A stretch of 64,000 nucleotides of DNA from a virus. Positions 11,840 through 31,081 of this stretch are shown one piece after another. Both the position numbers and the translations under genes were made by a program. The number at the start of each line of letters is the position of its first letter. Position 1 is the stretch's first letter. A model generated the notes under the pieces. The model saw nothing but the letters and a program-made list of their open reading frames with translations. It was not told where the DNA came from and ran no database searches. Location of the stretch: the IMG/VR virus record IMGVR_UViG_3300024261_000009, positions 32,001 to 96,000 of that record; one strand, 5' to 3'.

Positions 11840-14800
11840 CTAGATACTCCTGTGTCCCACTCCTCTAGCATTGGGCCGACGTCGTACACGGTGTAGTCTG
11901 AAGTGGCTACGCCTACCTTTAGGTACCTCTTTATACCTCCAGGAACGCGCCTTACGATGTCTTCAGACACGACCATTTCCACGTCAGAGTCTGCCAGTTG
12001 TTTTAGTCTGTTGGGAGTCTCCCTTCTATAAGTGGAAACTCCCCTAAGAACTCCGTGGAGCGCGTCTGCCCAAATAACCACTAACCAGCGATTGTCCTTA
12101 GTACCGTCCTTAGAGTCAAACTCTACGTATCTGACACCACTCTCAGTTTCGTTTAGCAGACTCCTCTCTGTGGGGTCGCTTAGGATAGACCTTACAGTAG
12201 AGTGCCTTATCTCGGAGGTGGGTCTGCTGTACTCGATTGGCGCGCTTAATATGTGCTCGAAAAGAGCATGCTTTTGCGTCCCCTGTATGACCTTCTTTAG
12301 GTACTCGGACTTCGCAATAACAAAGTCTCGTATGAAAACGTGGGGGTTTCTACCGGACAGCCACACCATTGCAGCAGCGATTATAACTCCGTCTAAGAAC
12401 CTACTAGGGATCTCTACCCCCGAGCTTCTCCCGAGCATATTCATGGCTAGGGGGTTGCTATAGGTAACTCTGAGTTCATGTATGTTTTTCAGTAGGTCTG
12501 GGGTGTGTCTAAATACCCCCGTTGTTATCTTTCGTCTAAATTCCCGAAATAAATCCGATCCATATTTTTCTCTAAGCACGACCTTAGGGTTCGGATGGCC
12601 TTCCCTGAGAACCGTGTGGATCTGTATGAAACGGGACACATCAGCTTCATCTCTGAGGTACTGAATTGCAGCGCACCAGAGTTGGCATCTCAGAGTATAA
12701 GACGTAACTTCTTTATTCTCTATATTGCCTCGGACGATTCGAGCTTCGGGGTTTGAAGTTAAAGATCTAACATCCCTCAGTATACCTCTAACGTGAGCAC
12801 TTTGTGCGTTCGACCCCGTGTCCTCGAATTCATCTAAAACAGCACCTAAGGAGCAATTATTCATCTCCTTTCGAAAGCCTGCGGTTGTATAGTTGTCCAT
12901 ACCGAAGGCTGATTCTAACAACCGGTGGTCACCGTCTGCTCCCGTAAGAAGCCCAAGGAACGAGCTTTTTCCGGATCCTCGGGTGCCATTTATTATAGTA
13001 TATAACTGGCGGGGTAGAGCAGAGCAGACGGGGTTTAGCATTATTGCCGCCGCTAAGTACTGACAATCGACGTCCTGATGTTTAAAGCACCACCCTGTGG
13101 ATATTGCTTCTACAAGAAACTCAAAAAGCTTAGGTAAGTCTGATTCGTTTCCCCCTTGAAGGTCCACCACACTAGACAGTTCTTCAGACCAGGAAGGCCT
13201 AATAAGATTAAAATAGTGCTTACCAAGTTTGGGTCCGTCCAGCCTATTCCACCGCAGTGTTCTATCAGTTTGTGACGACTCAGTCCCAACGTAGACATCG
13301 CTGCCGTTTACGATGCACCACCTGTTCTTCGTGGACTCCGCATCTTTATAGGGTATGTAGTGGCAACCGGCTTTCAGTTCTTTCAGCTCACTTAGAGGAG
13401 ACATCTCCTTGATGATCTCTTCGACCGCGATTTTAACGTACTTTTCCTGAAGGGCTTGTTGTTCTAGTAGTGTTAGTTCCCGGATACCATTAGCGGTTAT
13501 CCGCTGCGTTAGGAACTGAGGAACCCCCACCTGCTCTCGAGCCCAGAAGGTAATATTACCTAAGTCACTGCTCAGAGCCGCCTGAAGTTCTGCCGCTCGA
13601 GATGCGTTCCAGCTCCGCATCTCTCTCTTAATTTTATGCCATGCCAGGATTCTACCAACGCCTCCGGCAGTGTCTGTTCCAATAAACATGTATATTGTTC
13701 TTAAGGCTGTAGTAAGCCTACGCACGTACCCCTCTTCAGACTCTTCCTGCCCTATTATAAGCGCACTTATCTCCCCCTTGGAGATATCTGTAAGGATAGC
13801 AGCCTCTTCTACGTACTTGGCTTGCTCTGAAGGGTCCAGTAGGCAGGACCCTTCGTCTATTATGACTTCCCTAACAGCCCTAAGATCGTCTCTGTCCACA
13901 GACCCGAGTCGGTCGTGAAGCCTTTCCAGCACCCACTGATACGCGTACTGGTAGTTCCTTCTATGGCCCCCATCGGTTGCTCTCGCCATCGTGGCGTCTA
14001 ACCACTTAACGCCCCCGTACTTTACGATGGCCTCATCGGGATCCTTGGCACCGACACAGTCCGGCCACGTGAAAACGTGCATAGGTATTCGGTTGTTCCT
14101 AAGCAGGTTTTTTACAATAACGTCCCCGTTGTGCTCCGGTGAGTCCGCTGTCAGTAGACAGGTCTTTATGCCAAAATCTTTTAGTTTATCTAAGTTGGAT
14201 TCCGCAGCCCCCCCAGTAGCCAGGACTATATCGTACTGCATGCCCGCTTGGATTTGGTAGGCCATGTTCGCTATAGAGTCAAACTCGCCTTCCACAATTA
14301 TGGCACTAGAATTAACGGAACTATTAGTTCCTAGTTTAGCTATGTAGTGTTGGAGACCGAAAAACCCCAGGGCGTCATCGGTTTGATCGGACACTTTAAC
14401 AAAGTCTTTTCTCCCGTCGGGGCGTAAAAAATCCGCTCTAAGTTTAATAGCGGATATTTCCGTAGGGGTGCTGTGATACACAAAGGCTAAGGACCCTGTG
14501 TACTCCGCGGTGGTCCACTGTTTTAGATATTCCCGACACCTGTCTGATTCTAGTCCCAGAACCTCGTTCATTATCTTTATAGGAGGAACAACCCCGATAG
14601 GTAAGTGCCTCAGAATTTCGATGTCGTTTCGACAAGGAGCCGGACTTAACACGCCTCTCTTTCTCAGGTAATCTAAGCAAGGCTTAGCAAAATTAAAGGT
14701 GGGGTCCGCTTCCTCGTCCAAAGAAGCTTCAGCCGCCATTCTGAGACAAGTCTTAAGAGCATACTCTGTCGCCTCCCGGGTCTTCTGCATATCTTCGCGC

Positions 14801-16261: not shown

Positions 16262-17002
16262 TTGTCTACCGTAAAGGTTCTTGGAAGATCCGAAGAGATA
16301 TCCATGTTCCGTAGGTACAGGTCTTCTAGGGATCCTAAACTTAGGAGACTTCTTGTGGAGAGCTGCTTAAAGCTTGTCTTCTCCTTAGCCCGTAAGTACT
16401 GGCTAGACAGGGATCCTGAGTCTCTTCAGGCGTTAATATCCGCAGGAAACGTAGGGCTCATGGAGGCGGTTGACAAATTTGATCCTGACAGAGGAGCTAG
16501 GTTTGCTAGCTATGCTTCCTTCTGGATACTCATGCACGTTAGAACAGAGCTTACGACCCTGCACGACGTTGTTATTCCTTCTTCAAAGGCAAGAAAACTT
16601 CGCATGAGGGCGTCTTCAACAAGGAAAGAGATGGGGATAGAGGAAAGTCCTAGTCCTAGCTCAATGTACTCAAAGCTGGAAGATGTACCTGAGGCTCTGT
16701 CACGATCTACTTGTTCCGACCAAACCACAACTAGTAGTTACGTGCCCGGGCATTCTATACCCGGCGCAGACGTAACCAAGTTGTTTTCCCGTTGGTTTAG
16801 GTTCCTAACTGTCCGGGAACAGTTTGTACTCCGAGCCTACTACGGCCTTCTCGGAGAAGGAGAGGGTTTAAAGCTACGACAAATATCCTCACATTTAGGA
16901 CTCTCGAGTGAGCGGGTTAGGCAAATTAAGGCCTCTGCGCTAACTAAACTTCGCAGGTGGTTTTCCTACGATGGTGTGGATTGTCCTAGTGACGTCATTT
17001 AG
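16262..17002 (+). CDS. Sigma-70 family RNA polymerase sigma factor
   Basis: Region 2: LKLVFSLARKY...GNVGLMEAVDKFDPDRGARFASYASFWI. Region 4: LTVREQFVL...LGLSSERVRQIKASALTKLR. Confidence 0.92.
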   Translation: MSTVKVLGRSEEISMFRRYRSSRDPKLRRLLVESCLKLVFSLARKYWLDRDPESLQALISAGNVGLMEAVDKFDPDRGARFASYASFWILMHVRTELTTLHDVVIPSSKARKLRMRASSTRKEMGIEESPSPSSMYSKLEDVPEALSRSTCSDQTTTSSYVPGHSIPGADVTKLFSRWFRFLTVREQFVLRAYYGLLGEGEGLKLRQISSHLGLSSERVRQIKASALTKLRRWFSYDGVDCPSDVI

Positions 17003-17351
17003 TCTCGCACAGCTCCTTAACAAGGAGCCGTACTTGGTCTTCCGGCACCGGGTGATCCGGGTCAGAAACACATCGGACGGACACATCCGATGTAGAACTG
17101 ACAGTAAAAGACTCCCCGGGAACTAGGACCAGGTTTGCTTTAGCCGTAACCTCCAAGGGGCTCAGGCAGGTAGTACACACGGACGTGGCGTCAGCTATAT
17201 CAACCACCTCTGTAGCTTCCTGAATCAGTCGGGCAGTGGTTTTAAGTTTCTCCCACACTTCGTCAGGGTTGGTGCTCTCCAGTTCTTCCTCGGATTTGGC
17301 AGCAACAATCCCTACCCGTATTCTATGAACGGTTACCTGAAATAGTTTCAT
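16995..17351 (-). CDS. Hypothetical protein
   Basis: 118-aa ORF coupled within the minus-strand operon; contains CTTC. Confidence 0.55.
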   Translation of the reverse strand: MKLFQVTVHRIRVGIVAAKSEEELESTNPDEVWEKLKTTARLIQEATEVVDIADATSVCTTCLSPLEVTAKANLVLVPGESFTVSSTSDVSVRCVSDPDHPVPEDQVRLLVKELCETK

Positions 17352-17608
17352 AGTTGCTCCATCTGGCTAAGGAAGGTGCTCTCCAGTTCTTCCGTAGTAA
17401 TGAACCCCAAACCTACGTCCTTCGCATATTGTTTAAGCATTTCAAAATCCATTGGTTGGGGGAGGTTTTCTCCGATAAGAGCTCTAAGAAGCCACAGGTC
17501 CTCTTGTTCCAGCACTCGTTTGCGCATGTAAGCTAAGTACTCAGGGTCAATTTCCTGAAGGGCTTCCAAGAGCCGGGTTCCCGCCTCAAGTTCTTTTTCT
17601 CGAGTCAC
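17348..17608 (-). CDS. Hypothetical protein
   Basis: Probable GTG start at 17608 (GAGGA upstream, overlapping the parB stop); coupled to the next gene. Confidence 0.55.
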   Translation of the reverse strand: MTREKELEAGTRLLEALQEIDPEYLAYMRKRVLEQEDLWLLRALIGENLPQPMDFEMLKQYAKDVGLGFITTEELESTFLSQMEQL

Positions 17609-18489
17609 TAGTTCCTCTTCTCTGAAGAAAGTATATTCTTGTCTACTAGGGCCCACTGAAGTCCTTCTATGTAACCCTCCACCCTCGCTTTAACTTTTCC
17701 GTCAGTGATTAAGACCAGGTCCTTCTGGGAAGCTTCTATCTTAGATACCACCTCGGACACCGTTCTCATCCCAACGGATACGGCAGGTTTTTGCTTCCTA
17801 GGTTTTTTTCGCCGGGAAGTCGTAGCTCCCTCGGCTATAGCTTTATCTGCTAGCTCGGAGGCTCGGAGTTCTACCTGCCGAGAAGACAAGCCTTCCGTAA
17901 CAGCCTCCCGAACCAACTCTTCTCTAAGGGCCTTATCTGGAACAGAAATTATAGCTCTTGCGGAGCTGAAACTCAGCTCTTGCTCCACGAGCGCGTCCTT
18001 AACAAAGTCGTCCGCACTTAGAAGAGCCAGTCTCTGCTGTATAGCTTGTGCTCCAAGACCCATCTTGTCCTGGATATCCGGGGAATCCACCCCACCGTCT
18101 AGCAGTTTTTTAATATGTAAGGCCTGCTCATAGGCTGTCCAGGAGTTCTGAGAGGTATTTAGAGCCAACTGAGTTAACAGCCTTCTATCTCCATCGGAGT
18201 GTTCCGGCAGAACCTCAGCCCAAACGCTATGTAAATTGTGCCCCAAGTCGTCAACAGAAACCCCCTCTTCTAGAAGGCTCTCCAGCGCGGCTAAGCGTCT
18301 GTGCCCATCTTCTAAGGTATACTCTTTACCCTCAGGGTGATCAGCGACTTGCCGGACTCTAATTATGCCCTGAAGTCCAAAACTTTTTATTCTGAGAGCT
18401 AAGGTCTCTATGTCCCCGTAGTCCTTGCGGCTATTCTGGTGTGGATTCGTGTCGATAGATTCTATCTTTATTTCCGTTCGTGTAATCAT
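17608..18489 (-). CDS. parB: ParB/Spo0J-family protein
   Basis: NPHQNSRK box I, LEDGHRRLAAL box II (GxxR), central HTH, basic C-terminal linker. Confidence 0.85.
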   Translation of the reverse strand: MITRTEIKIESIDTNPHQNSRKDYGDIETLALRIKSFGLQGIIRVRQVADHPEGKEYTLEDGHRRLAALESLLEEGVSVDDLGHNLHSVWAEVLPEHSDGDRRLLTQLALNTSQNSWTAYEQALHIKKLLDGGVDSPDIQDKMGLGAQAIQQRLALLSADDFVKDALVEQELSFSSARAIISVPDKALREELVREAVTEGLSSRQVELRASELADKAIAEGATTSRRKKPRKQKPAVSVGMRTVSEVVSKIEASQKDLVLITDGKVKARVEGYIEGLQWALVDKNILSSEKRN

Positions 18490-18803
18490 GTTACCTTCTT
18501 TCTTGGAGTTTTAACTCTTGCGTCTTCAATAACGTTGTCGCAGTTAGTCTGGGTTTCTGTTCCCATTTCAGTTTCAGTTTCAGTTTCTATTCCAAGTTCA
18601 TCCTTCTCCGCGTCCTCAAGAGCTCGTTTTAATAAAGTACTCAGGGCGGGGGCAAGGAACAGGTTGGCCGCTCTTACAACAGGATTAGACTTAGCCAGTA
18701 AGCTGCCGCCTAGTTTAGCAGCAGCCACTATAATAAGGACTAAAGTCTCCCGAGGTATCTTCTTGAGGGTGAGGTATCTCTTCAAATCTTTTTCCCTCTG
18801 CAC
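18486..18803 (-). CDS. Hypothetical protein with (TE)n tract
   Basis: 105 aa, overlaps both neighbours, contains IETETETEMGTETQT. Confidence 0.5.
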   Translation of the reverse strand: MQREKDLKRYLTLKKIPRETLVLIIVAAAKLGGSLLAKSNPVVRAANLFLAPALSTLLKRALEDAEKDELGIETETETEMGTETQTNCDNVIEDARVKTPRKKVT

Positions 18804-19612
18804 TCAGACCAGTGCTGACAAAACCTCTCGCTGCACCACCAATTATCAGGACTGGTCTTTGGAAAAACCCCCGCGCTAATGCTTTCTGCTGCGTCCCGGA
18901 TAAGTTCCCCGGACCAGGTTACCTGCTGAGGGGTTAGGGTTGTTCTAACCTTATTAAACCTGGGAACTTTGCCCTTAATTATATTGTCGTACCCAACAGA
19001 AGCGCAGCCCTCCACATTTGCGTACAAGGCGAGCTGGAGGCTGTTCTCCGCGTCCCTGTCGGGCTTTTTCCTTTTGGTCACTTTAGTATCAATGACCTCA
19101 ACCCCGTTAGCTCCGTCTATCAAGTCTATAACTCCTCGAGTTAGGACTCCCTTAACAGGAACCTCAAAGCTTTTCTCAACGGCTAGAGGCACTATCTCTG
19201 GAGCACGGATCTTATGCCACAGTTTATACGCGGCCCTAACTTTGTCGAGCCAGTGGCCTACGGGTTTCTGTTCCCCGGTATCCGGGTCCTCAAGGGAGTC
19301 CAGTTCCGAAAAGTCAGCACTTACGATAGTGCTGGCTTCGTCCAAGGCTTCCTCTAACTCTCTAAGGGTATTAGTTTCCTGCTTAACTCTGAGAGTGTCT
19401 TCTATGATCTTATGTACGCTACGCCCCGTAGCGGTGGCTACACTACCGCCCCCTCGCTTACCTAGGACATAGGTATGGTAGTATCTCCACCCGCACATAT
19501 AGTACTGACTAACCTGGCTAACAGATATGTAGCCTCGGGGTAGGTTTAGCGAGGAGTCTACCTCGGGCGTGTCTAGATCTGATAATTTTATCTTTTTGAA
19601 GTGTTCTGACAT
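18782..19612 (-). CDS. Second PD-(D/E)xK nuclease, Cas4/RecB-like
   Basis: SVSQVSQYYMCGWRYY, RGVIDLID, IDTKVT, QLALY, WWCSERFCQHWSEC. ATG at 19612 follows GGAGG. Confidence 0.85.
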   Translation of the reverse strand: MSEHFKKIKLSDLDTPEVDSSLNLPRGYISVSQVSQYYMCGWRYYHTYVLGKRGGGSVATATGRSVHKIIEDTLRVKQETNTLRELEEALDEASTIVSADFSELDSLEDPDTGEQKPVGHWLDKVRAAYKLWHKIRAPEIVPLAVEKSFEVPVKGVLTRGVIDLIDGANGVEVIDTKVTKRKKPDRDAENSLQLALYANVEGCASVGYDNIIKGKVPRFNKVRTTLTPQQVTWSGELIRDAAESISAGVFPKTSPDNWWCSERFCQHWSECRGKKI

Positions 19613-20031
19613 AAATCCTCCAGTACTTTTGCCGCTCGAGGTCCGCCCTCTGCCAGTGCGTCTGCCCACTTTGCTTTGGGAGACTCTCTAGGGTGCCAAC
19701 GAAATCGGACTTGGTTTAAATTACGGACACGGTCTAACGCTCTCTGGTGTAGGGGTTTTAGTCCCTTGCTCTTTACGCGGTATACCCCACGAAGTTGCCT
19801 ATCCACCAATTGGCTATCAGTGTAGAGAGTAACTGTCTGGGCTCCTAGAGACTTTGCTTCCTCTAAGCCCCGTATTACGGCTAGGTACTCTGCTACGTTA
19901 TTAGACCCTACTCCGGCTTTCTCGGAGATAGCCGCCATAACGGTACCCTCCGAGTCTCGTATTAAAACGCCTATCCCCATTTTCCCGGGGTTAGGTTTAG
20001 CCTCCCCATCCGTTATAATTTCTAAGTGCAT
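19588..20031 (-). CDS. rnhA: Ribonuclease HI
   Basis: TDGEAKPNPG, NNVAEYLA, TDSQLV, WADALA (D-E-D-D catalytic set). Confidence 0.92.
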   Translation of the reverse strand: MHLEIITDGEAKPNPGKMGIGVLIRDSEGTVMAAISEKAGVGSNNVAEYLAVIRGLEEAKSLGAQTVTLYTDSQLVDRQLRGVYRVKSKGLKPLHQRALDRVRNLNQVRFRWHPRESPKAKWADALAEGGPRAAKVLEDLCQNTSKR

Positions 20032-20097
20032 ACTCTCCCCTTAAGGTCTTCTGTCATTTTTTGGTACCTGTTTTTTGTTACCAACAAGTCCGCTCCT

Positions 20098-21984
20098 TTA
20101 TATTTTGTTCGTGCTTACCGTCGCTTTAGACGCGCTTTTAGAGAACTTGCACGCAGGTTCGTAGGGCTTTACCCCTGCAGCTAGGCACTCCAGGGAACGA
20201 TCACAACTAACGCACTCCGGGGTCCGGGTGACCATAGCCGCCACATCTATCTTGGCCGTTAGTAGTTTGCGCGTTGCATCCATAACCGACCCTCGGATTG
20301 CAATAGTTTGAACTAGAAGTTGTTTAAACCCCTTGGCGCGTATACCAAAGTTTCTGTCTAACGACTGTAGCCAGTGATCCAGTCTCCAGTCTAGTTCGGC
20401 GTATATCATAGCAGGGGCCTTAAAGGTCACCCCTATCCCCATCGATATCTGTCCCACCAGAACTCGAGTCTTAGAGTCTTCGTTAAAAGACTTCTCTGCC
20501 GCCTTTAAATCTGGAGTAGTGCTATCATACCGCACCGAGTTAAGCCCCAAGGGATCTAGTACGGATTGTGAGAGCTCGTGAAGGGCATTAAGCATGGCTA
20601 CATGTTTTGCCCAGATAATTACTTTCCTTCCTTCAGCAAGATGGCCTTCTAGAAGCTCCCTAACGGCGTCCACTACAGGGTTTTTTCCGGAGAAGGTTAT
20701 GAGAGAGTTTCCAGGATCCCTTGTCTCCACCTTGCAAGCCTTAGTGTAGGGCTTTACCCCCTCCGCCACGCACTGGTTTAGCCTGGGACAGCCGTCACAT
20801 ATCGTGGGGTTCTTTTTAGACAGGTACAAAAAGCCGCTAGAAAGTTGCGACAACTTACTAAGTGCTACTATTTTTTCCTCTACGTTTAGAGTCCTGTTTT
20901 CTCCGGCAGAGTCTTTTATCTTGACCACTTTTCCGTCTACAATCTGGTTGTACACTTTCCTTAGCGCAGGCGTGGGCTCTATAGTTATGTGGTCAAAACT
21001 TCGTGGAGGAAGCTCAAGGCAGTCTTCAGCCTCTAAAGTTAGGGCTAAGGTTTCGACTTGCTTAGAAAGCAGGTGCATATTCTTAAAGCCTGAGACGGCA
21101 TGCTCGTGGTACCGGGACGGTATAGTGTACCTAGACTTAAAATCCCAGTAACTCGGAACTACGAACTTCCCGAGAAACCTTAGTTGGCCCCACAGGTGGC
21201 GTGGGTCTCCCAAGGACGCGGTCCCGGTTAGTAGCAACCTTCTGGAGGCCTTTTTAGCTAAGTAGTGGACCGCCTTGGTCTGCTGTGACTTGTAACCTCT
21301 CAGCCGATGAGACTCGTCTGCAACTATCATAGTGTAGGGGACCTGCGCGTATATTAGCTCGGAGGCTACTCGAGCCGTGTCATAGGTTATGACTAGAATG
21401 TCGGGAGGGTCTTTTAGTATATCTTTTAGCTTCTTAGCTCTCTGCTTAGGCCCGCTAGCAACCAAGGGTTCCGCCCTAAGCTCTCCTGCAGAATGAATGT
21501 CAGCTTCCTCTTTCCAGGTGTAGATGTTTACGCGTAGCGCGATTACCAAGCAAAGCTGTCTTCGAGAAGGGTCCTTGTTCTTTAGGTGCCTAACGAGGTC
21601 TACCACAATCTTTGTTTTACCGAGGCCTCTTCCTAGAAAGAGCCCATACCGTAGATTCCACAAGGCGTGGCAAAAGGCTGTCTTCTGGTGCGGATAAAAC
21701 GGCGTAACAGGCTCATACCCGTCCGTGTCTTCTCGCTCCATCAATAGAGGCACTCGGTCCTCTTTGGAGACGTGGTCTAAGACCTCCTCGGGGATAACCA
21801 CCGCAGGCAAAACTTTTCCTATATCCTCTACTACCTTTTGGTGGTAAGGGTAGAAAGCTGGGTACGCCCACCTTCCAGAAGGGGTTCGGACGGCACCGTA
21901 TATTTTCTTTTGGGCGGGGGACAAAGCCTCCATTATTATTACTGGAAGGCCGTTATTAAGCATTTCTACTCTAATAGTAGTCAT
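20098..21984 (-). CDS. SNF2-family SF2 helicase with duplicated 4-Cys motif
   Basis: GRGLGKT, ADESHRL, LLTGT, QSLDRNFGI; CxxC-x5-C-GVKPY-xxACK occurs twice. Confidence 0.85.
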   Translation of the reverse strand: MTTIRVEMLNNGLPVIIMEALSPAQKKIYGAVRTPSGRWAYPAFYPYHQKVVEDIGKVLPAVVIPEEVLDHVSKEDRVPLLMEREDTDGYEPVTPFYPHQKTAFCHALWNLRYGLFLGRGLGKTKIVVDLVRHLKNKDPSRRQLCLVIALRVNIYTWKEEADIHSAGELRAEPLVASGPKQRAKKLKDILKDPPDILVITYDTARVASELIYAQVPYTMIVADESHRLRGYKSQQTKAVHYLAKKASRRLLLTGTASLGDPRHLWGQLRFLGKFVVPSYWDFKSRYTIPSRYHEHAVSGFKNMHLLSKQVETLALTLEAEDCLELPPRSFDHITIEPTPALRKVYNQIVDGKVVKIKDSAGENRTLNVEEKIVALSKLSQLSSGFLYLSKKNPTICDGCPRLNQCVAEGVKPYTKACKVETRDPGNSLITFSGKNPVVDAVRELLEGHLAEGRKVIIWAKHVAMLNALHELSQSVLDPLGLNSVRYDSTTPDLKAAEKSFNEDSKTRVLVGQISMGIGVTFKAPAMIYAELDWRLDHWLQSLDRNFGIRAKGFKQLLVQTIAIRGSVMDATRKLLTAKIDVAAMVTRTPECVSCDRSLECLAAGVKPYEPACKFSKSASKATVSTNKI

Positions 21985-22078
21985 ATCGGTAAACCTCCTC
22001 TATAGTTATCGGGAATACAGTGTGTACCAGTCATATACTTATGCCAGCAAAAACGCTTTTATTTAAGGAGGTTTTACC

Positions 22079-23815
22079 ATGCCCTTAGCTGACGATCTGC
22101 TCGGCGTTTCTATAAACACGGCCCGACAGTACCAAGACCCCTTTAAGCTGTGGTCTGGCAATAACACGCCTAAGGATCTTAAATCCCTGTTTAAGTGGAC
22201 TGAATACCTCTACTACAATAGTGCCCAAATATACGCGGGCGTGAAGAAATTCGCTGAATACCCCATTACAGAAATACGTTACTTAACGACCAGTCCAAAA
22301 ATACGCGACCGCTACAAAGAGCTCCTGGAAGAAGTTATTGGGATAAAGAGCTGCTTAATACGCTCCTCCCTAGACCTCCATGTGTACGGGAATAGTTTTT
22401 CTTCCGTCCACATCCCGTTTAAGAGGTTCCTTGTCTGTGACTCCTGCGGTCATAAGTCAGATATAAGAAGCGTTGATTACACGCTAAAGTTAGATAAGCT
22501 AGCTTTCAAGGGACACTGCTCCTCCTGTAACAGCACTCGAAAGATGACCGTTGAGGACCAGCGCATCTTGGACGTGGAAAAAGTTAACCTGATACGGTGG
22601 GACCCTAAGTGCATCACTATCTCCCACAACCCCGTAACGGGGGACAGTCAGTACTACTTAGACGTACCCGAAGACTTGGTCTCCTCAATAAAGAAAGCCG
22701 ACGAACACCTTATAGCGTCAACTCCTTACAGCATACTGCAGGCCGTTTCTGAAGGATCGACTTTTAAGTTCGCTTCCGGGGAACTCTTTCACATGAAGTC
22801 AGATTCCCCCGCAGGGGTTGAGGGCGGGTGGGGCTACCCAAGTCTAATGGCCGCTATGCACCTTTTTTATCACGCGTCAGTTATGCGAAAAGCGAATGAG
22901 GCCATCGCGCTTGAGAGAATTGTTCCTATGCGAATACTTCACCCGGCAGCCACATCGGGTAATGGGGATCCCATCATGTCAATGTCCATCTCTAGTTGGA
23001 TAGACGATATGAAAACTTCTGTAAAAGAATGGAGGAAGGACCCTAACCACATGGTTTTCGCTCCTGTGGCTGTTGGAGTATCTCAGATCGGCGGCGATGC
23101 CCGGGCTCTTATGGTAGACTCAGAAATACAAAGAGCCGAGGACAACATAATAGCATCCATGGGGTTACCTAAGGAGTTCATCTACGGAGGACTGTCCTTT
23201 ACAGGATCCGGAGTCACACTTAGGATGCTAGAAAACCAGCTTGAGAGCTCCCTATTTCAGATAAACAACCTTCTTCAGTGGACCACGGACAAACTCTCTA
23301 AATACCTTAGTTGGGACAGCTGCAAGGTAGCTCTGGGAGACTTTAAAATGGTGGACGATGTGCAACAGAAGGGAATCTTTCTCAACTTGTGGCAGAGCGG
23401 AGTTGTCTCAAAAACAACTCTGGCGGAGGCCAACGGGATAGACCTCGCTGAGGAGCGGGAAAGAATGAAACAAGAGCAGCTTGAAGACGCTCAGTTGCAG
23501 AGGGAGATCCAGATGTCTATACAGGAGATGCAAAACACCTTAGCGGACCAAGCTCGAGCAGAGGTCCAAATGGGTAATCCCGGGCAGCAAGCTCAAGGTT
23601 CTCAGTACGACCAGCAAGCGGTAATAGCCCAGGCAGAGAATATAGCCCTTCAGATGCTACAGATGGACCCCAATATGAGAAGATCTCAGCTGTCCTCACT
23701 GCAGTCAGAAGACTACGTTATGTACTCCGTGGTCATCCAGAGATTAGAACAACTTCAACTGGACCAGAAGAACCAAGCAGCGCAGGCCAACCTGCAGCAG
23801 ATGGGAGTAAACTAG
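22079..23815 (+). CDS. Portal protein with Zn-ribbon insertion
   Basis: 578 aa at the head of the plus-strand virion block with strong RBS AAGGAGG; portal-like segments (LIRWDPKCI, ELFHMK, GWGYPSL); CDSC...CSSC; Gln-rich C-terminus. Assigned by pattern and position. Confidence 0.7.
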   Translation: MPLADDLLGVSINTARQYQDPFKLWSGNNTPKDLKSLFKWTEYLYYNSAQIYAGVKKFAEYPITEIRYLTTSPKIRDRYKELLEEVIGIKSCLIRSSLDLHVYGNSFSSVHIPFKRFLVCDSCGHKSDIRSVDYTLKLDKLAFKGHCSSCNSTRKMTVEDQRILDVEKVNLIRWDPKCITISHNPVTGDSQYYLDVPEDLVSSIKKADEHLIASTPYSILQAVSEGSTFKFASGELFHMKSDSPAGVEGGWGYPSLMAAMHLFYHASVMRKANEAIALERIVPMRILHPAATSGNGDPIMSMSISSWIDDMKTSVKEWRKDPNHMVFAPVAVGVSQIGGDARALMVDSEIQRAEDNIIASMGLPKEFIYGGLSFTGSGVTLRMLENQLESSLFQINNLLQWTTDKLSKYLSWDSCKVALGDFKMVDDVQQKGIFLNLWQSGVVSKTTLAEANGIDLAEERERMKQEQLEDAQLQREIQMSIQEMQNTLADQARAEVQMGNPGQQAQGSQYDQQAVIAQAENIALQMLQMDPNMRRSQLSSLQSEDYVMYSVVIQRLEQLQLDQKNQAAQANLQQMGVN

Positions 23816-23816
23816 T

Positions 23817-24176
23817 ATGTCCTCTAACGACCCTATAAAGGATTTTTCTCAGAGTATAGGGGGAGGACTTGACGCACCGAACCCTTTTAAAGAGGGTTTA
23901 GGGAAGACTAATGGTTTTGAAAAAGACCTATTCGAAGGAACTCCCCATGAGGCTAGTAAGCCTGCGACCCTAAAGTGGCGGCCGAAAGCGCGGGTGTTTA
24001 TCATTGATGAAGACGGCAACGAGGAGTACGAGGACATATTGGCGCAGGGGGCCAACGGGGAAGTCATGTTGGGCCGAAAGGAGATAGTGGATCTTAAAGG
24101 TTCTATTTCCTACAAGGTGTACTTGGAGTGGATGATACCTATTCGACCAGCTAAAAAGAAGCAGACTAACTCGTAG
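23817..24176 (+). CDS. Hypothetical protein
   Basis: 119 aa directly after the portal gene. Confidence 0.6.
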   Translation: MSSNDPIKDFSQSIGGGLDAPNPFKEGLGKTNGFEKDLFEGTPHEASKPATLKWRPKARVFIIDEDGNEEYEDILAQGANGEVMLGRKEIVDLKGSISYKVYLEWMIPIRPAKKKQTNS

Positions 24177-24261
24177 TCTGCTCCTCAAGGACGTCCTTAC
24201 TTTCTTCTCTTTGGCTTAGAACTTAGTTTCTTTAGCGCGCTTCTCTTTGTGTATATTGGTC

Positions 24262-24774
24262 CTACTCGCATCTTAACTCCGTTAAATTATTATTAAGTGC
24301 CTCGGGACTACTAACTGCCGCCTTAAGCAGTTTCCGAGACGTTTCCTCTTTAAGGTCCGCGGTTCTCCTCTGTTTTCTGGACTTTCTACAGGGAGTACAC
24401 ACGGGCCTAACCGCGAGACTACGAAACTTGTTTCCCCGAGCCGAAGCCACGGCGTTGTACCTCTCGACCTGATTTTTCCACCGGAAGAGCATCCCGATGG
24501 TTATGTCTATAAGTGCCTTTTCTCCGGGACACCTAACACAACTAGCCATCCCAACTATAACGTCGGTAGGATCCAGATCTGAGGTTCTTCTATCTATCCA
24601 CTCCCCGCTAGGAGGTTCTGTCATCAGGCCTTCTTCACAGCTTTTCGGAGCGCCCTGCTCCGCAAGAATTCTCGCCAGATAATTATATAAATACACTATT
24701 TTTTGCCTTTCTTTATTGTGGTTAGTGCTATTTGCATGAACACTACATGTGCCTTGCATATACTTGTGACACAA
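24262..24774 (-). CDS. Hypothetical Zn-binding protein (start probably ATG 24624)
   Basis: CVRC and CTPC pairs plus a basic C-terminal helix; the 5' extension lies in AT-rich, promoter-like DNA. Confidence 0.5.
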   Translation of the reverse strand: MCHKYMQGTCSVHANSTNHNKERQKIVYLYNYLARILAEQGAPKSCEEGLMTEPPSGEWIDRRTSDLDPTDVIVGMASCVRCPGEKALIDITIGMLFRWKNQVERYNAVASARGNKFRSLAVRPVCTPCRKSRKQRRTADLKEETSRKLLKAAVSSPEALNNNLTELRCE

Positions 24775-24805
24775 TTAGGGGCGGTATTTTTGCTCCGATG
24801 CCCGC

Positions 24806-27800
24806 TTGGAGACCCTGATGAAAGATTTAACCCCCGTTGTAATGAACCCCTACGACCGTAGGGATAAAATCAGAACCTCCGCCATCCAAGGAGTGGAAAG
24901 CCTATTTCCAATTCTAGGAGACCATAGAGATCTAGAGGTAAACAACCTTCGGGTAGATAAGAAAGACTACTCCGCTTCAGATATAAAGGACGCTGTTTTA
25001 TCTGGGAGAACTCTTGGGGAGCAACTGAAAGCGGACGTGACTATCCGGGATAAAAACGGGCAGGTTATAGACGTAAAAAAGAACCACTCTCTAATGAGAG
25101 TACCCTACTTCACCCCGCAGAACACTTTCGTGGTCAAGGGAAACGAGTACGTAGTTAGACACCAGCTGAGGACTATGCCTGGGGTATACACTCGAAAAAG
25201 AGGGAATGGTGAACTTGAGGCTAGCTTTAACTTAGCTAAGGGCTCCAATTTTCGTCTTAGTATGGACCCGGAAAAAGGTCACATGAACATGGAGTACGGA
25301 TCTTCGAAAATACCCTTGTATCCGGTACTTAGAGGCATGGGAATGACTCACACGGATATATCAAAGCAGTGGGGTTCTGGTGTAGCCAACCAAAACCAGG
25401 ATGCGTTTGACCCTAAGAGGGACAAACACGTAGACCGGCTGTATAAGAAACTGGTACCGCAGAGGAAGGTGGACTCTTCCCTAAATACAGGGGAAAAGGT
25501 TTCTGTTATACTGGATAAGTATTCCAACACACTCTTAGATAAAGAGACTACTAAGAAAACTTTGGGGGAAGCCCACACTAGCGTCACTCCCAGGAGCTTA
25601 CTCGCGGCAAGCAAAAAATTACTGCGAGTATACAAGGGGGAGGCGACCTCGGACGAGAGAGACAGCCTCGAGTACCAGACTCTCCACTCCCCTGAAGATT
25701 TCATCAGGGAACGCTTAGAGCATTCGGGCAGAAATATGCGGTGGAAGTTGAAATCAAAGCTAGACTTAACGTCTAAGCCGGAAATTAGTAAGGTTCTGCC
25801 CTCGTCTACGTTCACAAAGCCTGTGGACTCCTTCATAACCACCTCTCAGATAACCACCTCCCCGACTCAGATAAACCCCATTGCGTTAATTAACGATGCC
25901 AGCAGCATTACCCGATTCGGGGAAGGGGGTATCGGAAGTGAGAGAGCTATCCCCGCGGACGTCCGAACTTTACACGCGTCCCACCTGGGAGCTTTGGACC
26001 CCTTCGGCACTCCAGAGAGCAGCAAATCCGGAGTAGATGTTCGGGCGGCTCAGCATTTATATAAGGATGATAGGGGGCGTCTTCACACCATACTCAAAAA
26101 CGTCAGGACTTCTAAGAACCAGTTTGTTCCCGTGTCGGAAATACCTAGGTCCACTGTGGCGTTTTCTAACCAGAACACCCTTTCGGGTAGTGTGGACGTA
26201 CTGCACAAGGGCAAGGTAACCAAGGTGTCCCCGGGTAAGGTTGATTACCAGGTACCCCACTCCTCGGTTCTATACGGAGTATCGACTAATCTTATACCTT
26301 TCCTAGATTCTACTCAGGGGAACCGGGCAATAATGGCCTCAAAACACGTAGCCCAGGCTGTGCCTCTGATCGGACGAGAAGCGCCTTTAATCCAGGTCGG
26401 GGCCCCCGAAAACAGTGGGTACTCCTCGATAGAGGAACTGGTGGCTAAAACTATCGTCTTGCCCACATCTCCGGTGTCGGGAAGGGTTACGCGCGTAGAC
26501 GATGATTTCATCCATATAAGAGATTCAAAAGGATCTCCCCACAAGGTTGTCCGATTCAAAGACTATCCCCTTGCGTCAAAGACGCATATAAACGAAACAC
26601 CTGTGGTCCGCAGGGGTGATAAAGTAAAGAAGGGCCAGGTTCTTTCTGACAATAACTACACGGTAGACGGGGTCCTAGCCCTGGGCAAAAACCTAAACGT
26701 GGGCTACATGGCCTACAGAGGTTTAAACTCAAATGACGCAGTGGTTATCTCAGATGCAGCCGCGGATAAGCTTACCTCGGAGCATATGGTCAAACGAGTC
26801 CTAGTGCTGGATAACGACCTCTCCCTAGGGGACAAGAAGCACGCGGCAAACTTCGCTTCGAGGTTTACTCGGGATCAGTATAGTAACTTGAAATCCGGCG
26901 TTGTTACTCCAGGAACCGTCTTGAGAAGTGGGGACCCTATAGCAACCGCAGTTAGAAAAGCCCCTCCTAGCGTTGAAAATGAAATGTTTGGTAGGATACA
27001 TAAGTCCTTGAGAAGAGAGTACGTGGACGACAGTCTCGTCTGGGAGGATCCCGAAGACGGAGAGGTTGTTGATGTAAAACAAACGGGCAACAGGTTAGCA
27101 GTAACTATAAAGTCCAAAAAAAGGATGAAGGTTGGTGATAAACTAACGAATCGGTACGGGGCTAAGGGCGTAGTATCTAAAATAATTCCCGATGCAGAGA
27201 TGATCCAGGATGCTTCGGGGAGCCCTATTGACCTACTATGGTCTTCCTCGGGTGTCATAAGTCGAATAAATCCAGGCCAGATTGTGGAGACCGCTGCCGC
27301 TAAGGTGGCTAAGAAGCAGGGCAAACCAATCGTTGTCCAAAACTTTTCCAACAGAGATAACGTTCAGTGGGCCAAAAAGTTACTAAAGGATAATGGCCTA
27401 ACCGACAAGGAAGAGGTTACCGATCCAATCACGGGAAAGAAGATACCAAATATCATGGTGGGTCCTCAGTATGTCTATAAGGGCTTTAAGTCTACGGATA
27501 CTAATTTCTCTGCTCGAGGGGCGGGAGGGTCGTACGACATTAACCAGCAGCCTGGGAGAGGAGGCATCTCTGGTGCCAAGGGGATGGGCAGGATGGAAAT
27601 TAACGGACTGCTTGCACACAACGCACGAGACATCCTAAGGGAAAATGCGGTTATAAAGGGCACCAGAAACACTGAGTACTGGAATGCGGTTAGACTCGGG
27701 CTACCCATCCCTTCTGCGACGGCTCCTTTCGCGCACAATAAGTTTGTTTCTATGCTTACCGGAGCCGGTATGCGAATGAATCGAGAGGGAAACCAGGTCA

Positions 27801-29167
27801 GCATGGCCCCTCTGACAAATAGAGATATAAGGAAGATGTCTTCCGGGGTTATTACTTCCGGGAAGATGGTTCGAGCCAAGGACCTGCGTCCCGAAGCGGG
27901 AGGACTCTTTGACCCTGGCGTGACAGGAGGGTTAACGGGGCAGAAGTGGTCTCACATAGAGTTAGACGAGCCCGTAGTCAGTCCTGTTTACCGGGACAGT
28001 GTCCGAAGAATACTGGGCTTTACTAACACAGAGCTCCAGGATACCGTGGAAAAAAAGGGCGGGGGGTTCATTAGAGAATCTCTTAAGTCTATAGATATCG
28101 ACGGTAAGATAAAATCTCTCACTAGGGAAGTTAGAACCAGATCTCCTGGGTCCTCTCAAGATGATGCTCTTAAGCAACTCAAGGCGTTTAAGGCCTTGAA
28201 GTCCCGAGGCGTTCGGCCCGAGGATGCCTACATTCTGGACGCGTTTCCCGTTTTGCCTCCTCAGTTTAGGCCTATAGTGCCAGGGCCTAAAGGAGACCTC
28301 TTAGTATCCGACGTTAACCACCTGTATAAGGACCTAGCCTTAGCTAATGAAAAGATGAAGGAAGCTAAGTCCTTAGGTCTTCCTGATAAAGATATAGGGG
28401 CCATGAGAGCCCATCTTTCAGACGCTGTTGGAGCTGTCGCGGGGCTTAACGATCCCGTTACCGACAAATCTCGTGCCGCGGCCAAGAAGGGGATTATTAA
28501 TACAATAGCGGGAACAAAAAGAGGCTTTTATAACGGGAAACTTATTAGTAAAAGATTAGATCTAACTGGGAGAGGAACCGCTGCACCAGACCCTTCCCTA
28601 GGTCTGGATGAAGTGGGTCTTCCCGAGGAGATGGCTTGGTCTATGTACCAGCCCTTTACGATAGGTAACCTGGTTAGGAGAGGGCACAAAGCTGTCCGGG
28701 CTAAAGAACTCGTAGAAAATAGGGACCCTATAGCCCGGGAGGCTTTATCTAGAGAGATTTCTCAAAGACCCGTGATTCTTAACAGAGCTCCCAGTCTGCA
28801 TAAGTACAGCCTAGTTTCCGCGTACCCCAAGATGATCCCCGGAAAAACTATAAAGGTTAACCCCTTCATTGAGGCGGGCATGAATTTGGACTACGATGGG
28901 GACGCGCTTCAGTTGCACCTACCAGCAACTCCTGGGGGAGTATCTGATGCTAAGAAGATGTTAATATCGGAAAACATCATGGGAACAAGGAATCGAGACT
29001 CTGTTCAGGTATTTCCAGAACTAGAATCCGTTATTGGACTGTATAAGGGGACAACGGGAACCTCCAGCAGGCCTATGCAAACGTTCTCTTCGCGCCGGGA
29101 GGCACTGGAAGCATACCGTAAGGGAGATATTTCTTTAAAAGACCCTGTAAGGCTAGTAAACGATTAA
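24806..29167 (+). CDS. rpoB/rpoC: Phage multisubunit RNA polymerase: beta fused to N-half of beta-prime (contains the catalytic DxDxD)
   Basis: Beta motifs: FVVKGNEYVVRHQL, HASHLGALDPFGTPE, LIPFLDSTQGNRAIM, VGDKLTNRYGAKGVV, SRINPGQ, GRMEINGL. Beta-prime motifs: WSHIEL, PVLPPQFRP, SKRLDLTGRG, LNRAPSLH, NLDYDGD (28883-28903). Confidence 0.96.
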   Translation: METLMKDLTPVVMNPYDRRDKIRTSAIQGVESLFPILGDHRDLEVNNLRVDKKDYSASDIKDAVLSGRTLGEQLKADVTIRDKNGQVIDVKKNHSLMRVPYFTPQNTFVVKGNEYVVRHQLRTMPGVYTRKRGNGELEASFNLAKGSNFRLSMDPEKGHMNMEYGSSKIPLYPVLRGMGMTHTDISKQWGSGVANQNQDAFDPKRDKHVDRLYKKLVPQRKVDSSLNTGEKVSVILDKYSNTLLDKETTKKTLGEAHTSVTPRSLLAASKKLLRVYKGEATSDERDSLEYQTLHSPEDFIRERLEHSGRNMRWKLKSKLDLTSKPEISKVLPSSTFTKPVDSFITTSQITTSPTQINPIALINDASSITRFGEGGIGSERAIPADVRTLHASHLGALDPFGTPESSKSGVDVRAAQHLYKDDRGRLHTILKNVRTSKNQFVPVSEIPRSTVAFSNQNTLSGSVDVLHKGKVTKVSPGKVDYQVPHSSVLYGVSTNLIPFLDSTQGNRAIMASKHVAQAVPLIGREAPLIQVGAPENSGYSSIEELVAKTIVLPTSPVSGRVTRVDDDFIHIRDSKGSPHKVVRFKDYPLASKTHINETPVVRRGDKVKKGQVLSDNNYTVDGVLALGKNLNVGYMAYRGLNSNDAVVISDAAADKLTSEHMVKRVLVLDNDLSLGDKKHAANFASRFTRDQYSNLKSGVVTPGTVLRSGDPIATAVRKAPPSVENEMFGRIHKSLRREYVDDSLVWEDPEDGEVVDVKQTGNRLAVTIKSKKRMKVGDKLTNRYGAKGVVSKIIPDAEMIQDASGSPIDLLWSSSGVISRINPGQIVETAAAKVAKKQGKPIVVQNFSNRDNVQWAKKLLKDNGLTDKEEVTDPITGKKIPNIMVGPQYVYKGFKSTDTNFSARGAGGSYDINQQPGRGGISGAKGMGRMEINGLLAHNARDILRENAVIKGTRNTEYWNAVRLGLPIPSATAPFAHNKFVSMLTGAGMRMNREGNQVSMAPLTNRDIRKMSSGVITSGKMVRAKDLRPEAGGLFDPGVTGGLTGQKWSHIELDEPVVSPVYRDSVRRILGFTNTELQDTVEKKGGGFIRESLKSIDIDGKIKSLTREVRTRSPGSSQDDALKQLKAFKALKSRGVRPEDAYILDAFPVLPPQFRPIVPGPKGDLLVSDVNHLYKDLALANEKMKEAKSLGLPDKDIGAMRAHLSDAVGAVAGLNDPVTDKSRAAAKKGIINTIAGTKRGFYNGKLISKRLDLTGRGTAAPDPSLGLDEVGLPEEMAWSMYQPFTIGNLVRRGHKAVRAKELVENRDPIAREALSREISQRPVILNRAPSLHKYSLVSAYPKMIPGKTIKVNPFIEAGMNLDYDGDALQLHLPATPGGVSDAKKMLISENIMGTRNRDSVQVFPELESVIGLYKGTTGTSSRPMQTFSSRREALEAYRKGDISLKDPVRLVND

Positions 29168-29219: not shown

Positions 29220-29693
29220 ATGTCGCAACCCAAGTTAATACCACTAGTCCTGCTTTTCGCAACCCTATCGGTCCCTTTCGTAGCCACATCCCAAGACGGG
29301 GGCGCTAATGATTCCGGTACAGCCTCCTCTGCGGGCGAAGAATCTCCAGTGACAACAGCGCTTGGAGATCCCGAAACTGTAGAGCAGGCAATCCAATTAG
29401 TGTCTCAAGCCTTTGACATGGCCCTAGCGGGCCAGTGGCTCTTGCTAGCAATACTCCTGATACAGCTGGGGGTGTTCCTCATCAAAAGATACGCTCCGAG
29501 CGGTTACATGAAGGCCTGGGGGTCCGTTACTGTGGGCGCTCTGGCGGCTTTGATAGCAGTCCTATCCGGCTTATCCGGGGGATTGTCTTGGCAGGAATGC
29601 CTCGTAGTGTTCCTCTCGGGCCCGGCCTCGTCTCTAGCAGTAGACTTCTTGCACGCTATGGGCTGGCTTAAAAGAAAGACTCTCGATGCTTAG
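29220..29693 (+). CDS. Membrane protein (signal peptide + about 3-4 TM; possibly holin-like)
   Basis: Hydrophobic N-terminus, low-complexity linker, several hydrophobic helices, basic C-terminus; RBS AGGAG. Confidence 0.55.
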   Translation: MSQPKLIPLVLLFATLSVPFVATSQDGGANDSGTASSAGEESPVTTALGDPETVEQAIQLVSQAFDMALAGQWLLLAILLIQLGVFLIKRYAPSGYMKAWGSVTVGALAALIAVLSGLSGGLSWQECLVVFLSGPASSLAVDFLHAMGWLKRKTLDA

Positions 29694-29943
29694 TACTGCG
29701 TATAAAATCGGTAGTGTCACCGCTGTTGCTGACTTTCTAGCTAAGGCAGCCTCCTCGGAAACCTCTGAGTCGGGGGTGGCGGAAAACTTCATTGCCCGGA
29801 TCAACCAAATAACAGTGGGCTCTTCTGAAGAAGATGCCTCTCAGGCCAAACGAACGGGGAATGAGGTGTCTGCCTCAAGCCCCTCAACACGTCAAGCGGT
29901 AAGCTGGACGTCTCCCACGATAATTCATTCTGGAAGGCCTTAG
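29686..29943 (+). CDS. Small putative internal head protein (AYKxG leader)
   Basis: MLSTAYKIGS...FLAKAAS. Confidence 0.55.
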   Translation: MLSTAYKIGSVTAVADFLAKAASSETSESGVAENFIARINQITVGSSEEDASQAKRTGNEVSASSPSTRQAVSWTSPTIIHSGRP

Positions 29944-29946
29944 TAA

Positions 29947-30720
29947 ATGCTTAGTAGAGCCTACAAAGCCGGAAGTTACGAAGCTGAAGAGGCCTTTCTC
30001 GAGCGGCTATCCGGGGACCCGTCCTTTGAAAAGGTATCGTGGGCGGCACTCCGTACTATAGGATCCTCCCTCATGGGTACTGGGGCTAGGGCAGGGACAT
30101 CCTCAATAATGTCCGGCGTGGGCTCCGGAGCAAGGGCTGCTTGGGGTGCGGGCATGGCATCCAGACCCGTGTCTGCAGCTAAGTTCATGTTAGGCATGGG
30201 CGGAAAAACTAGGCTTGGAAAGAACCTCTCTTTTTGGGGAGCTTCTCCACTAACCTTCGGGGGTGTTGGTGCCGCTACGGCCGAAGAGGGAGAGAGGGGC
30301 GAAGCCTTCATGAAGGGTGTCGCTGGCGGCCTACTGTTCAACGTAGGTATGCGCGGAGGGGAAAAACTAGTGGGTGGGGGCTTACTGAAGGCCCTGAAAC
30401 CTAAGGCGGGCATTGGGTTGAACGCTTTTACAAAGCACACCGCAAAGAGTGTAAAAGCACACAAGGGTCTTATGCCAAAGGGGGTCCCGCCCCCGCAAGC
30501 AGGAGAATACGCCGTTGGTTTTAAACAGCTGGGAGCGGCGGATAAGTTACGGAGAGGCTCGGTAGCTACGGGCACCGCTCTCGGCGGGATGGCAGGCGGC
30601 TTCGGACTTTCGATGGCAGCAGACCCCCTGGTGAACATTTTCTCTAAGAAGAACGTTCCCTACAAGGTCCCTCCAATGACACACGTAAATAACCCGTATA
30701 ACCCGGTATACTACAGGTGA
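29947..30720 (+). CDS. Gly-zipper putative internal/ejection protein (AYKxG leader)
   Basis: MLSRAYKAGS...FEKVS; GxxxG-rich hydrophobic stretches. Confidence 0.6.
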   Translation: MLSRAYKAGSYEAEEAFLERLSGDPSFEKVSWAALRTIGSSLMGTGARAGTSSIMSGVGSGARAAWGAGMASRPVSAAKFMLGMGGKTRLGKNLSFWGASPLTFGGVGAATAEEGERGEAFMKGVAGGLLFNVGMRGGEKLVGGGLLKALKPKAGIGLNAFTKHTAKSVKAHKGLMPKGVPPPQAGEYAVGFKQLGAADKLRRGSVATGTALGGMAGGFGLSMAADPLVNIFSKKNVPYKVPPMTHVNNPYNPVYYR

Positions 30721-30724
30721 GTAG

Positions 30725-31081
30725 ATGTTAGATATTGCATACAGGATAGGTTCTCGAAGGGCAGAAGAGGAGGCTCTTTTAAAGCATTCCTCGCTGGCTA
30801 AGAGTTTAGCAGCAGCAGGCGTGTCCGGGAGCGTTATAGGTTCCGTAGGAAGCCAGTTGAGTTCCAGAGATGACGGTTCCCTATTCCTAGACCCCAAGCA
30901 GGTGTCCGGCCAGGCTATCACAGAGGGGGCCGCTACAGGACTAGGCGCAATGGGGGGGTTAGCCGCGGGTAGAACCTTCGGAAAAGGCTTTTGGCCCAGC
31001 GTTCTGGGAATGGCTCTGGGAGGTACTATAGCCCCTACCGCTGTAAGAAACCTAGGTTCGAGTAGAAACAATGTCTATTAG
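30725..31081 (+). CDS. Gly-zipper putative internal/ejection protein (AYRxG leader)
   Basis: MLDIAYRIGS; GAATGLGAMGGLAAG and LGMALGGTIA. Confidence 0.6.
   Translation: MLDIAYRIGSRRAEEEALLKHSSLAKSLAAAGVSGSVIGSVGSQLSSRDDGSLFLDPKQVSGQAITEGAATGLGAMGGLAAGRTFGKGFWPSVLGMALGGTIAPTAVRNLGSSRNNVY

Follow-up and report, generated by a model that had tools for sequence, protein, structure and literature searches.

Can a tailed phage combine an RNA polymerase (RNAP) of its own with a sigma factor of its own? The question is raised by a 64,000-nucleotide stretch of viral DNA, here called the window, which comprises bases 32001-96000 of a 117,232-bp IMG/VR virus record (IMGVR_UViG_3300024261_000009; CheckV completeness 73%). 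The window encodes a sigma-70-family factor, which we refer to as sigA, together with the core of a bacterial-type multisubunit RNAP. Reviews published up to 2026 present 'own RNAP' and 'own sigma' as opposite strategies, in which RNAP-encoding phages are without sigma, sigma-encoding phages are without RNAP, and phage sigmas serve host cores (PMC7824862, PMC7598289, PMC13282480). The characterised phage multisubunit RNAPs, such as those of phiKZ and AR9, all use non-sigma specificity subunits. The pairing described here contradicts this dichotomy, and the view of a first-pass annotation of the window, that a phage core with a phage sigma would be unusual, gains weight from the finding that the pairing is clade-wide and runs counter to these reviews.

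We are practically certain of the gene architecture as set out below, and very confident that the phage belongs to the Arash-like clade, a large and mostly uncultured group to which Salmonella phage Arash and three Vibrio phages also belong. Across this clade the pairing of a phage sigma with a phage bacterial-type core is real, and the best explanation of the window is that it carries the greater part of a lytic, Arash-like tailed phage's transcription kit. The reading that we somewhat favour is a virion-carried, sigma-dependent phage RNAP, for which a packaged sigma would serve the early genes and sigA a later class. The features on which the argument turns are, in window coordinates:

16262-17002, plus strand: sigA, a sigma-70-family factor of 246 aa from the first canonical start, with a region 1.2-like element, sigma2, a disordered linker of ~40 aa and sigma4; ortholog of Arash gp196.
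24806-29167, plus strand: large RNAP polypeptide, a single 1453-aa open reading frame (ORF) that joins full beta to the N-terminal half of beta' (as far as about Escherichia coli beta' 548); Pfam Rpb2_2, Rpb2_3, Rpb2_6, Rpb1_1 and Rpb1_2.
25832-25921 and 26000-26050, plus strand: Rif cluster I segments (beta residues 343-372 and 399-414).
26963-27001, plus strand: homolog of the flap-tip helix in beta, PPSVENEMFGRIH (residues 720-732), aligning to E. coli beta about 897-910.
28307-28438, plus strand: homolog of the beta' clamp helices (coiled-coil), SDVNHLYKDL...LSDAVGAV (residues 1168-1211), aligning to E. coli beta' 263-307.
28889-28903, plus strand: catalytic Mg-binding motif DYDGD, inside NLDYDGD (bacterial NADFDGD); D1362, Y1363, D1364, G1365 and D1366 are invariant in the clade alignment.
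29220-31081, plus strand: four small ORFs between the two RNAP genes (157, 85, 257 and 118 aa), with homologs in 0-3 of 80 related loci.
31071-32849, plus strand: small RNAP polypeptide of 592 aa, the C-terminal half of beta' (bridge helix, trigger loop); Pfam Rpb1_5 (PF04998, 1.2e-17, 64.7 bits), 31% identity to Arash gp216, homolog in 63 of 80 loci.

The architecture of the core differs from that first supposed. Both RNAP chains had been placed at 24806-29167, an interval that proved to hold one ORF covering beta and the N-terminal part of beta' (beta'N), with the C-terminal part (beta'C) lying further downstream at 31071-32849. Compared with structures in the PDB, residues 25-975 of the fusion correspond to bacterial beta (2e-65) and residues 1083-1450 to E. 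coli beta' 179-548 (2e-48), and its catalytic domains are readily recognised (PF00562, the beta double-psi barrel or Rpb2 domain 6, at 163 bits; PF00623 at 79 bits). Its start is likely the ATG at 24818, giving 1449 aa, because an identical database protein has that length. Residues 49-465 of beta'C correspond to Bacillus subtilis beta' 638-1096 (2e-40), and its residue 38 aligns to residue 27 of Synechocystis RpoC2, which places the split ~10-15 residues from the cyanobacterial rpoC1/rpoC2 site. Fusion of rpoB to rpoC occurs in Helicobacter and Wolbachia, and the rpoC1/rpoC2 split in cyanobacteria and plastids; the phage enzyme thus has a Helicobacter-like beta-beta' tether and a beta' split near the cyanobacterial site, and we know of no cellular enzyme that combines the two. 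Cellular fused or split enzymes retain two alpha subunits, omega and the beta' zinc-binding domain. Here that domain (E. coli C70, C72, C85 and C88) is absent, seen as a 32-column gap relative to E. coli RpoC in all clade members shown. The earlier observation that the window has no alpha or omega gene stands, and it extends beyond the window: in sequence-level searches neither the whole 117-kb record nor any of five complete relatives gave a match over cut-off for alpha (PF01000, PF01193) or omega (PF01192). The four intervening ORFs were considered as alpha- or omega-like small subunits and rejected, as they are not conserved and the three that were scanned (157, 257 and 118 aa; the scan left out the 85-aa ORF at 29686-29943) have no Pfam or PHROG match. 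They are variable cargo, given how few loci have homologs, and in Arash other genes, mostly on the opposite strand, lie between its two RNAP genes. The core consists of the beta-beta'N fusion and a separate beta'C, with no recognisable alpha or omega and no beta' zinc-binding domain, and the beta-beta' tether may replace the alpha dimer as assembly platform. Six positions of beta Rif cluster I, which we take to be rifampicin-binding sites, differ from E. coli (Q513T, D516T, H526D, R529S, S531T and L533F), and the phage RNAP is predicted to be rifampicin-insensitive.

This core is widespread and is accompanied by sigma genes in a fixed arrangement. Homologs of the fusion number 2931 at E<1e-20 and occur on 278 IMG/VR contigs, whereas among 50,697 phage records the full-length fusion is found only in Salmonella phage Arash and Vibrio phages D69, D148 and D181. 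Each of the five complete relatives, like the present record, has a single Rpb2_6 gene. A Sigma70_r2 domain is present in the records of 29 of 35 relatives and in all six of those that are at least 90% complete; the clade sigma gene is invariably on the strand of the RNAP gene and 9-14 kb upstream of it, and a sigA homolog falls within the 10-kb flank at 42 of 80 loci. In complete clade members there is exactly one core, accompanied by a single syntenic sigma of the window type and, within the virion module, by another sigma that is divergent. Arash (OQ632216; PMC10585845) shares with the window the order exonuclease, sigma (gp196), SNF2 helicase, portal (gp204), fusion (gp206), beta'C (gp216) and structural genes, and has orthologs of both sigma types (gp196 and gp10). 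Its gp206 is 33% identical to the fusion over 99% of the length. The two phages differ in that protein identity is only 28-37% and the intervening genes are not the same, and gp196 is longer than sigA, at 345 aa. As a side observation, many clade fusion genes carry inteins (PF14528, PF14890) or homing endonucleases, for example P0009, P0053, P0069, P0079 and those of Vibrio phages D181 and D148, and others have acetyltransferase (PF00583) or PF18823 insertions.

The sigma factor of the window had been described as an intact protein with sigma regions 2 and 4. As regards the domains this is correct, both being above the Pfam cut-offs (Sigma70_r2, PF04542, 1.3e-11, 44.5 bits against 24; Sigma70_r4, PF04545, 3.5e-11, 42.9 bits against 24.1), but 'intact' needs qualification, since the true start is probably upstream of 16262 and no region 3 (sigma3) was detected in either the Pfam scan or the AlphaFold2 (AF2) model. 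The frame is open upstream to 16175 and encodes an in-frame LDTYYKAL, a form of the region-1.2-like LxxYYxxL motif found in all relatives, which is modelled as a helix with a predicted local distance difference test (pLDDT) score of 85-93. Because this upstream stretch has no ATG, GTG or TTG, a start at CTG 16202 or ATC 16217 is likely. The AF2 model, computed from 19 clade sequences, has a pLDDT of 79, with sigma2 above 90, sigma4 confident and roughly 40 linker residues disordered, and its top Foldseek matches are sigma32, sigmaS and sigmaA. Among NCBIfam models sigA passes only that of the sigma-70 superfamily, with best partial similarity to RpoS, RpoH and RpoD.

Judged from its sequence, sigA looks functional. 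In the clade alignment the aromatic residues of region 2.3 that melt the -10 element are kept (E. coli Y430 as invariant Y104, W434 as near-invariant W108), as are the GN-GL motif of region 2.2 and the E-R-x-R-Q motif of region 4.2. Region 2.2 also retains the equivalents of N409 and M413, and its Q406-E407 pair is replaced by S/A-A in 16 of 18 clade sigA sequences and in Arash gp196, as sampled; the core-contact role of region 2.2 residues (E. coli D403, Q406, E407 and N409) is taken from published work (PMC8321222, PMC3326312). Compensatory changes between region 2.2 of sigma and the clamp helices of beta' were considered and not counted as evidence; within the clade there is almost no variation. 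Separately, the sigA orthologs at loci L088, L089, L090, L092 and L099 have CxxC...CxxC insertions resembling zinc ribbons, placed between regions 1.2 and 2.1 as well as after region 2.4, which are notable beside the lost zinc-binding domain of the phage beta'.

Two further sigma-family genes lie in the record outside the window:

13810-14514 of the record (G000:C1:13810-14514; locus L110:811-1515), plus strand: divergent, three-domain gp10-type sigma of the virion structural module, lying 18 kb upstream of window base 1.
2098-2754 of the record (G000:C1:2098-2754; locus L003:1213-1869), minus strand: ECF-type sigma, a lone minus-strand gene, RpoE/SigW-like with r2 and r4_2.

The gp10-type sigma is 28% identical to Arash gp10 over its full length and is flanked, as in the structural module of Arash, by gp8-like and gp13-like genes. 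In Pfam it gives a weak match to region 3 only, region 2 being missed, and its AF2 model (pLDDT 82) has sigma factors for all of its top 50 Foldseek matches, over the full length. It is found in all five complete relatives, and of the 50,697 phage records only those of the four phages with a full-length fusion RNAP contain it. The gp10-type sigma is a better candidate than sigA for the sigma of a packaged holoenzyme, and it is probably packaged together with the RNAP. It appears to keep Glu at position 407, as read from a consensus and not a computed alignment, and this was not counted as evidence. The ECF-type sigma, which retains the Q-E pair of region 2.2, was also considered as the gp10 ortholog and rejected for want of a direct BLAST match, the true ortholog being the gene at 13810-14514. 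None of 35 relatives searched had a second Sigma70_r2 match, so that this third sigma, an extra relative to Arash, is probably a lineage-specific and recent acquisition.

The surfaces to which sigma docks on bacterial RNAP were placed by MAFFT alignment with E. coli RpoB and RpoC, and their conservation was judged across 18 diverse clade members. The peptides quoted in the first-pass annotation are present at 26963-27001 and 28307-28438 and do match in position the sigma4 and sigma2 docking sites, namely the flap-tip helix and the clamp helices. At the flap tip, E. coli L901, L902 and I905 are kept as M/I/L, F/L and I/V/L, F906 is replaced by H or S, and in the flap region G729 and L735 are invariant. 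The clamp helices have an invariant D-x-N-x-x-Y-x-D motif. Substitution of R275, E295 or A302 of the clamp helices disrupts formation of the E. coli holoenzyme (PMC8321222); in the phage, A302 is kept as A1207, R275 has become A1180 and E295 has become M1200, and position 275 is Ala, Thr, Leu or Val in the relatives sampled, never Arg or Lys. The statement that the enzyme keeps the sigma-docking surfaces is thus true of homologous, conserved segments, and is not true of R275 and E295 or of the deleted beta' zinc-binding domain. Few parts of the phage enzyme are as conserved as these two segments, and this strong conservation implies a bound partner.

A bacterial-type core alone cannot find promoters; the clade-conserved sigma-70-family proteins are the likely specificity subunits. 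The sigA gene stands alone on the plus strand among replication genes, and the core genes stand in the portal and structural module. In the mechanism that we propose, the core would be packaged in the virion, injected and used to transcribe the early genes; the gp10-type sigma would be co-packaged and injected to direct it to early promoters; and sigA, made after infection, would switch transcription to a later promoter class. The parts of this proposal differ in strength. Packaging is suggested by Arash particles, in which liquid chromatography-mass spectrometry found gp206 with the most spectra of all, gp216 detected and the sigma gp10 at 100% coverage (PMC10585845), and we consider virion packaging of the core to be likely. 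That the phage core is served by one or more of the phage sigmas is probable to a slightly lesser degree, and whether sigA acts on the phage core rather than on the host core is evenly balanced. Host-type sigma70 promoters are not enriched around the locus, in 14-34 kb (16 against 15 +/- 4 expected), which counts in favour of a sigma-dependent phage RNAP. The fullest version, in which this would be the first sigma-dependent viral multisubunit RNAP, in a non-jumbo clade, packaged with an early sigma, reprogrammed by sigA for late genes, independent of host RNAP and insensitive to rifampicin, is put forward tentatively, as the chances are somewhat against its holding in full.

Several points weigh against a sigma-dependent phage holoenzyme. 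Contact between a phage sigma and the core is a prediction, and that the genes occur together in a clade of vertical descent is no proof that their products are physical partners. As all multisubunit RNAPs have clamp helices and a flap, these are not diagnostic of sigma binding, and of the three clamp-helix residues that contact sigma70 in E. coli, two are replaced. The window-type sigma gp196 is not among the 116 Arash virion proteins (PMC10585845). That 'virion' list itself covers 116 of the 272 proteins, ribonucleotide reductases and RNA ligases among them (PMC10585845), and for this reason the evidence for packaging is moderate; the particles were purified by sucrose gradient only, and the authors allow for either a role in early transcription or carry-over (PMC10585845). 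The sole core genes lie in the late, structural module, and the host core with sigA could start late transcription, as in an N4-like hybrid. Lastly, no phage promoter consensus could be extracted by k-mer, TTGA[AC]N, repeat or pooled-upstream tests. In 54 upstream regions of the 117-kb genome only weak k-mers emerged (TAAATAA 5 times against 0.5 expected, AGTATTA 6 against 0.6), and the TTGA[AC]N class showed no enrichment. The repeated TATNTTTAGATTGC, considered as a promoter motif, occurs at chance level, and pooled upstream regions of sigA from 39 relatives have no common motif except a coding TACTAC.

The rival that survives best is the hybrid arrangement just mentioned, in which the phage RNAP, once injected and whether or not joined by the gp10-type sigma, would act early only, and sigA would redirect the host core (alpha2-beta-beta'-omega) to middle and late promoters. 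It has to be taken seriously, since the only core genes belong to the late module, which would leave few phage cores at the time when late transcription must start. There are precedents: T4 gp55 and SPO1 gp28 and gp34 redirect the host core, N4 returns to host RNAP for its late genes, and reviews regard phage sigmas as redirectors of host cores. The absence of the sigA ortholog from the Arash virion list fits this arrangement too, as does a region 2.2 that is otherwise very bacterial-like, with its N409 and M413 equivalents. It is less easily reconciled with the strict synteny of sigA with the phage RNAP module throughout the clade, with the replacement of the near-universal Q406-E407 core-contact pair by S/A-A (16 of 18, and gp196), which fits a non-host partner, or with clamp helices and a flap tip conserved strongly enough to imply a partner of the phage core. 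On balance we consider it rather unlikely.

Alternatively, the core may use a non-sigma specificity factor comparable to phiKZ gp68 or AR9 gp226, or recognise promoters intrinsically, in which case the phage sigmas would all serve the RNAP of the host or do something else. A precedent is found in all phage multisubunit RNAPs that have been characterised, and clade-conserved unknown proteins that could be such a factor flank the RNAP genes, for example at 33766-34815 and 35546-37576. The present enzyme, however, is far nearer to bacterial RNAP than those of phiKZ and AR9 are (cellular beta or beta' chains make up all of the 60 best PDB matches listed), the gp10-type sigma and the fusion RNAP have an identical phyletic distribution among the 50,697 phages, and the gp10-type sigma was reported in the same Arash virion preparation as the core, all of which makes this explanation improbable. 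That the polymerase genes are decaying or non-functional relics, and their pairing with sigma meaningless, was considered only for the split beta', the missing zinc-binding domain and the absent alpha and omega, found no support, and has a negligible probability in the face of intact ORFs, an invariant DYDGD, many invariant columns across 18 diverse members, the 2931 homologs at E<1e-20 and abundant peptides of the Arash ortholog.

How far, then, is the virion-carried, sigma-dependent phage RNAP that we favour anticipated by known systems? The RNAP kind is already described, in Arash and in the mReC phages. In the Arash paper the genes are annotated and appear in the virion proteome, and no sigma-dependent phage holoenzyme is proposed (PMC10585845). 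The mReC phages (PMC7481178) are likewise metagenomic tailed phages, with contigs of up to about 200 kb from aquatic sources and with beta and beta' bacterial enough for the COG0085 and COG0086 models; the paper mentions neither a fusion or split architecture for these phages nor sigma. The present phage may be a member of the mReC group. The mReC capsid marker PF07068 has no match in the candidate head proteins here, a weak criterion given that a capsid call was made for only 8 of 97 mReC contigs (PMC7481178). The large terminase subunit, TerL, scores 19.4 bits against PF03237, below the cut-off of 22, its best match being GpA_ATPase, and the contig identifiers in the supplement of PMC7481178 are uninformative for a link between the clade and mReC. 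Nothing later was found in the literature on transcription in Arash-like phages, and the clade-wide combination of a bacterial-like core with two dedicated sigma-family genes, one of them apparently virion-borne, is undiscussed in the searchable literature.

Phages phiKZ and AR9/PBS2 likewise encode beta/beta'-type enzymes that lack alpha and omega; they package an early-gene enzyme in the virion, as the present phage probably does, and also have an associated helicase gene. Their enzymes come in two sets, in each of which beta and beta' are divided among four or five polypeptides of very divergent sequence, and they have no sigma homologs and use gp68 or gp226 as specificity subunit, whereas here there is one set, with an intact beta fused to beta'N, a bacterial-like sequence and two conserved sigma-family genes. 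With T4 gp55, SPO1 gp28 and gp34 and the sigmas of jumbo phages without RNAP, the shared element is a phage sigma-70-family protein that presumably specifies a temporal promoter class. Those phages have no RNAP core, whereas here the sigma gene is a fixed neighbour of the core gene, and sigA, unlike the minimal T4 gp55, has regions 1.2, 2 and 4.

Should the sigma-dependent reading be true, a phage core using sigma-family factors would provide a minimal, alpha-less model of the sigma-core partnership, and one core with swapped phage sigmas would be a third route to a temporal programme for phages. Since the mReC enzymes, which are related, form a sister group to Bacteria, it would in addition have a bearing on how bacterial transcription initiation arose. 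The question is directly testable, as the clade has cultured members in Salmonella and Vibrio.

In the window as a whole, the minus strand carries the replication genes (family A DNA polymerase, primase-helicase, PD-(D/E)XK exonucleases, a ParB-like protein, RNase H and the SNF2 helicase), and the plus strand carries TerL, the sigma gene and, from 22079 onward, the portal, RNAP, head protease, head and tail genes. Two of them adjoin the RNAP genes or their module:

20098-21984, minus strand: SNF2-family helicase, Pfam SNF2-rel_dom at 7.9e-22, similar to Arash gp198c, with a homolog in 67 of 80 related loci; a neighbour of the RNAP/portal module.
22079-23815, plus strand: portal protein, adjoining the RNAP gene upstream on the same strand, 31% identical to Arash gp204 (E 2e-93), with weak PHROG portal matches, present in 78 of 80 related loci.

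A RapA-like role of the SNF2 helicase with the phage polymerase is possible. Between the portal module and the RNAP gene lies a 630-bp stretch (24177-24805), whose sole ORF (24262-24774, minus strand, TTG start, 170 aa) has homologs in 0 of 80 related loci; the stretch may be non-coding, regulatory or an ORFan. At the edge of the replication module, positions 730-2151 of the window (minus strand) hold a large HNH endonuclease-like ORF (PHROG 1314 at 2.4e-55), and outside the window, at about 105250-105350 of the record (G000:C1), an intergenic element with a CAT anticodon is tRNA-like as judged by eye.

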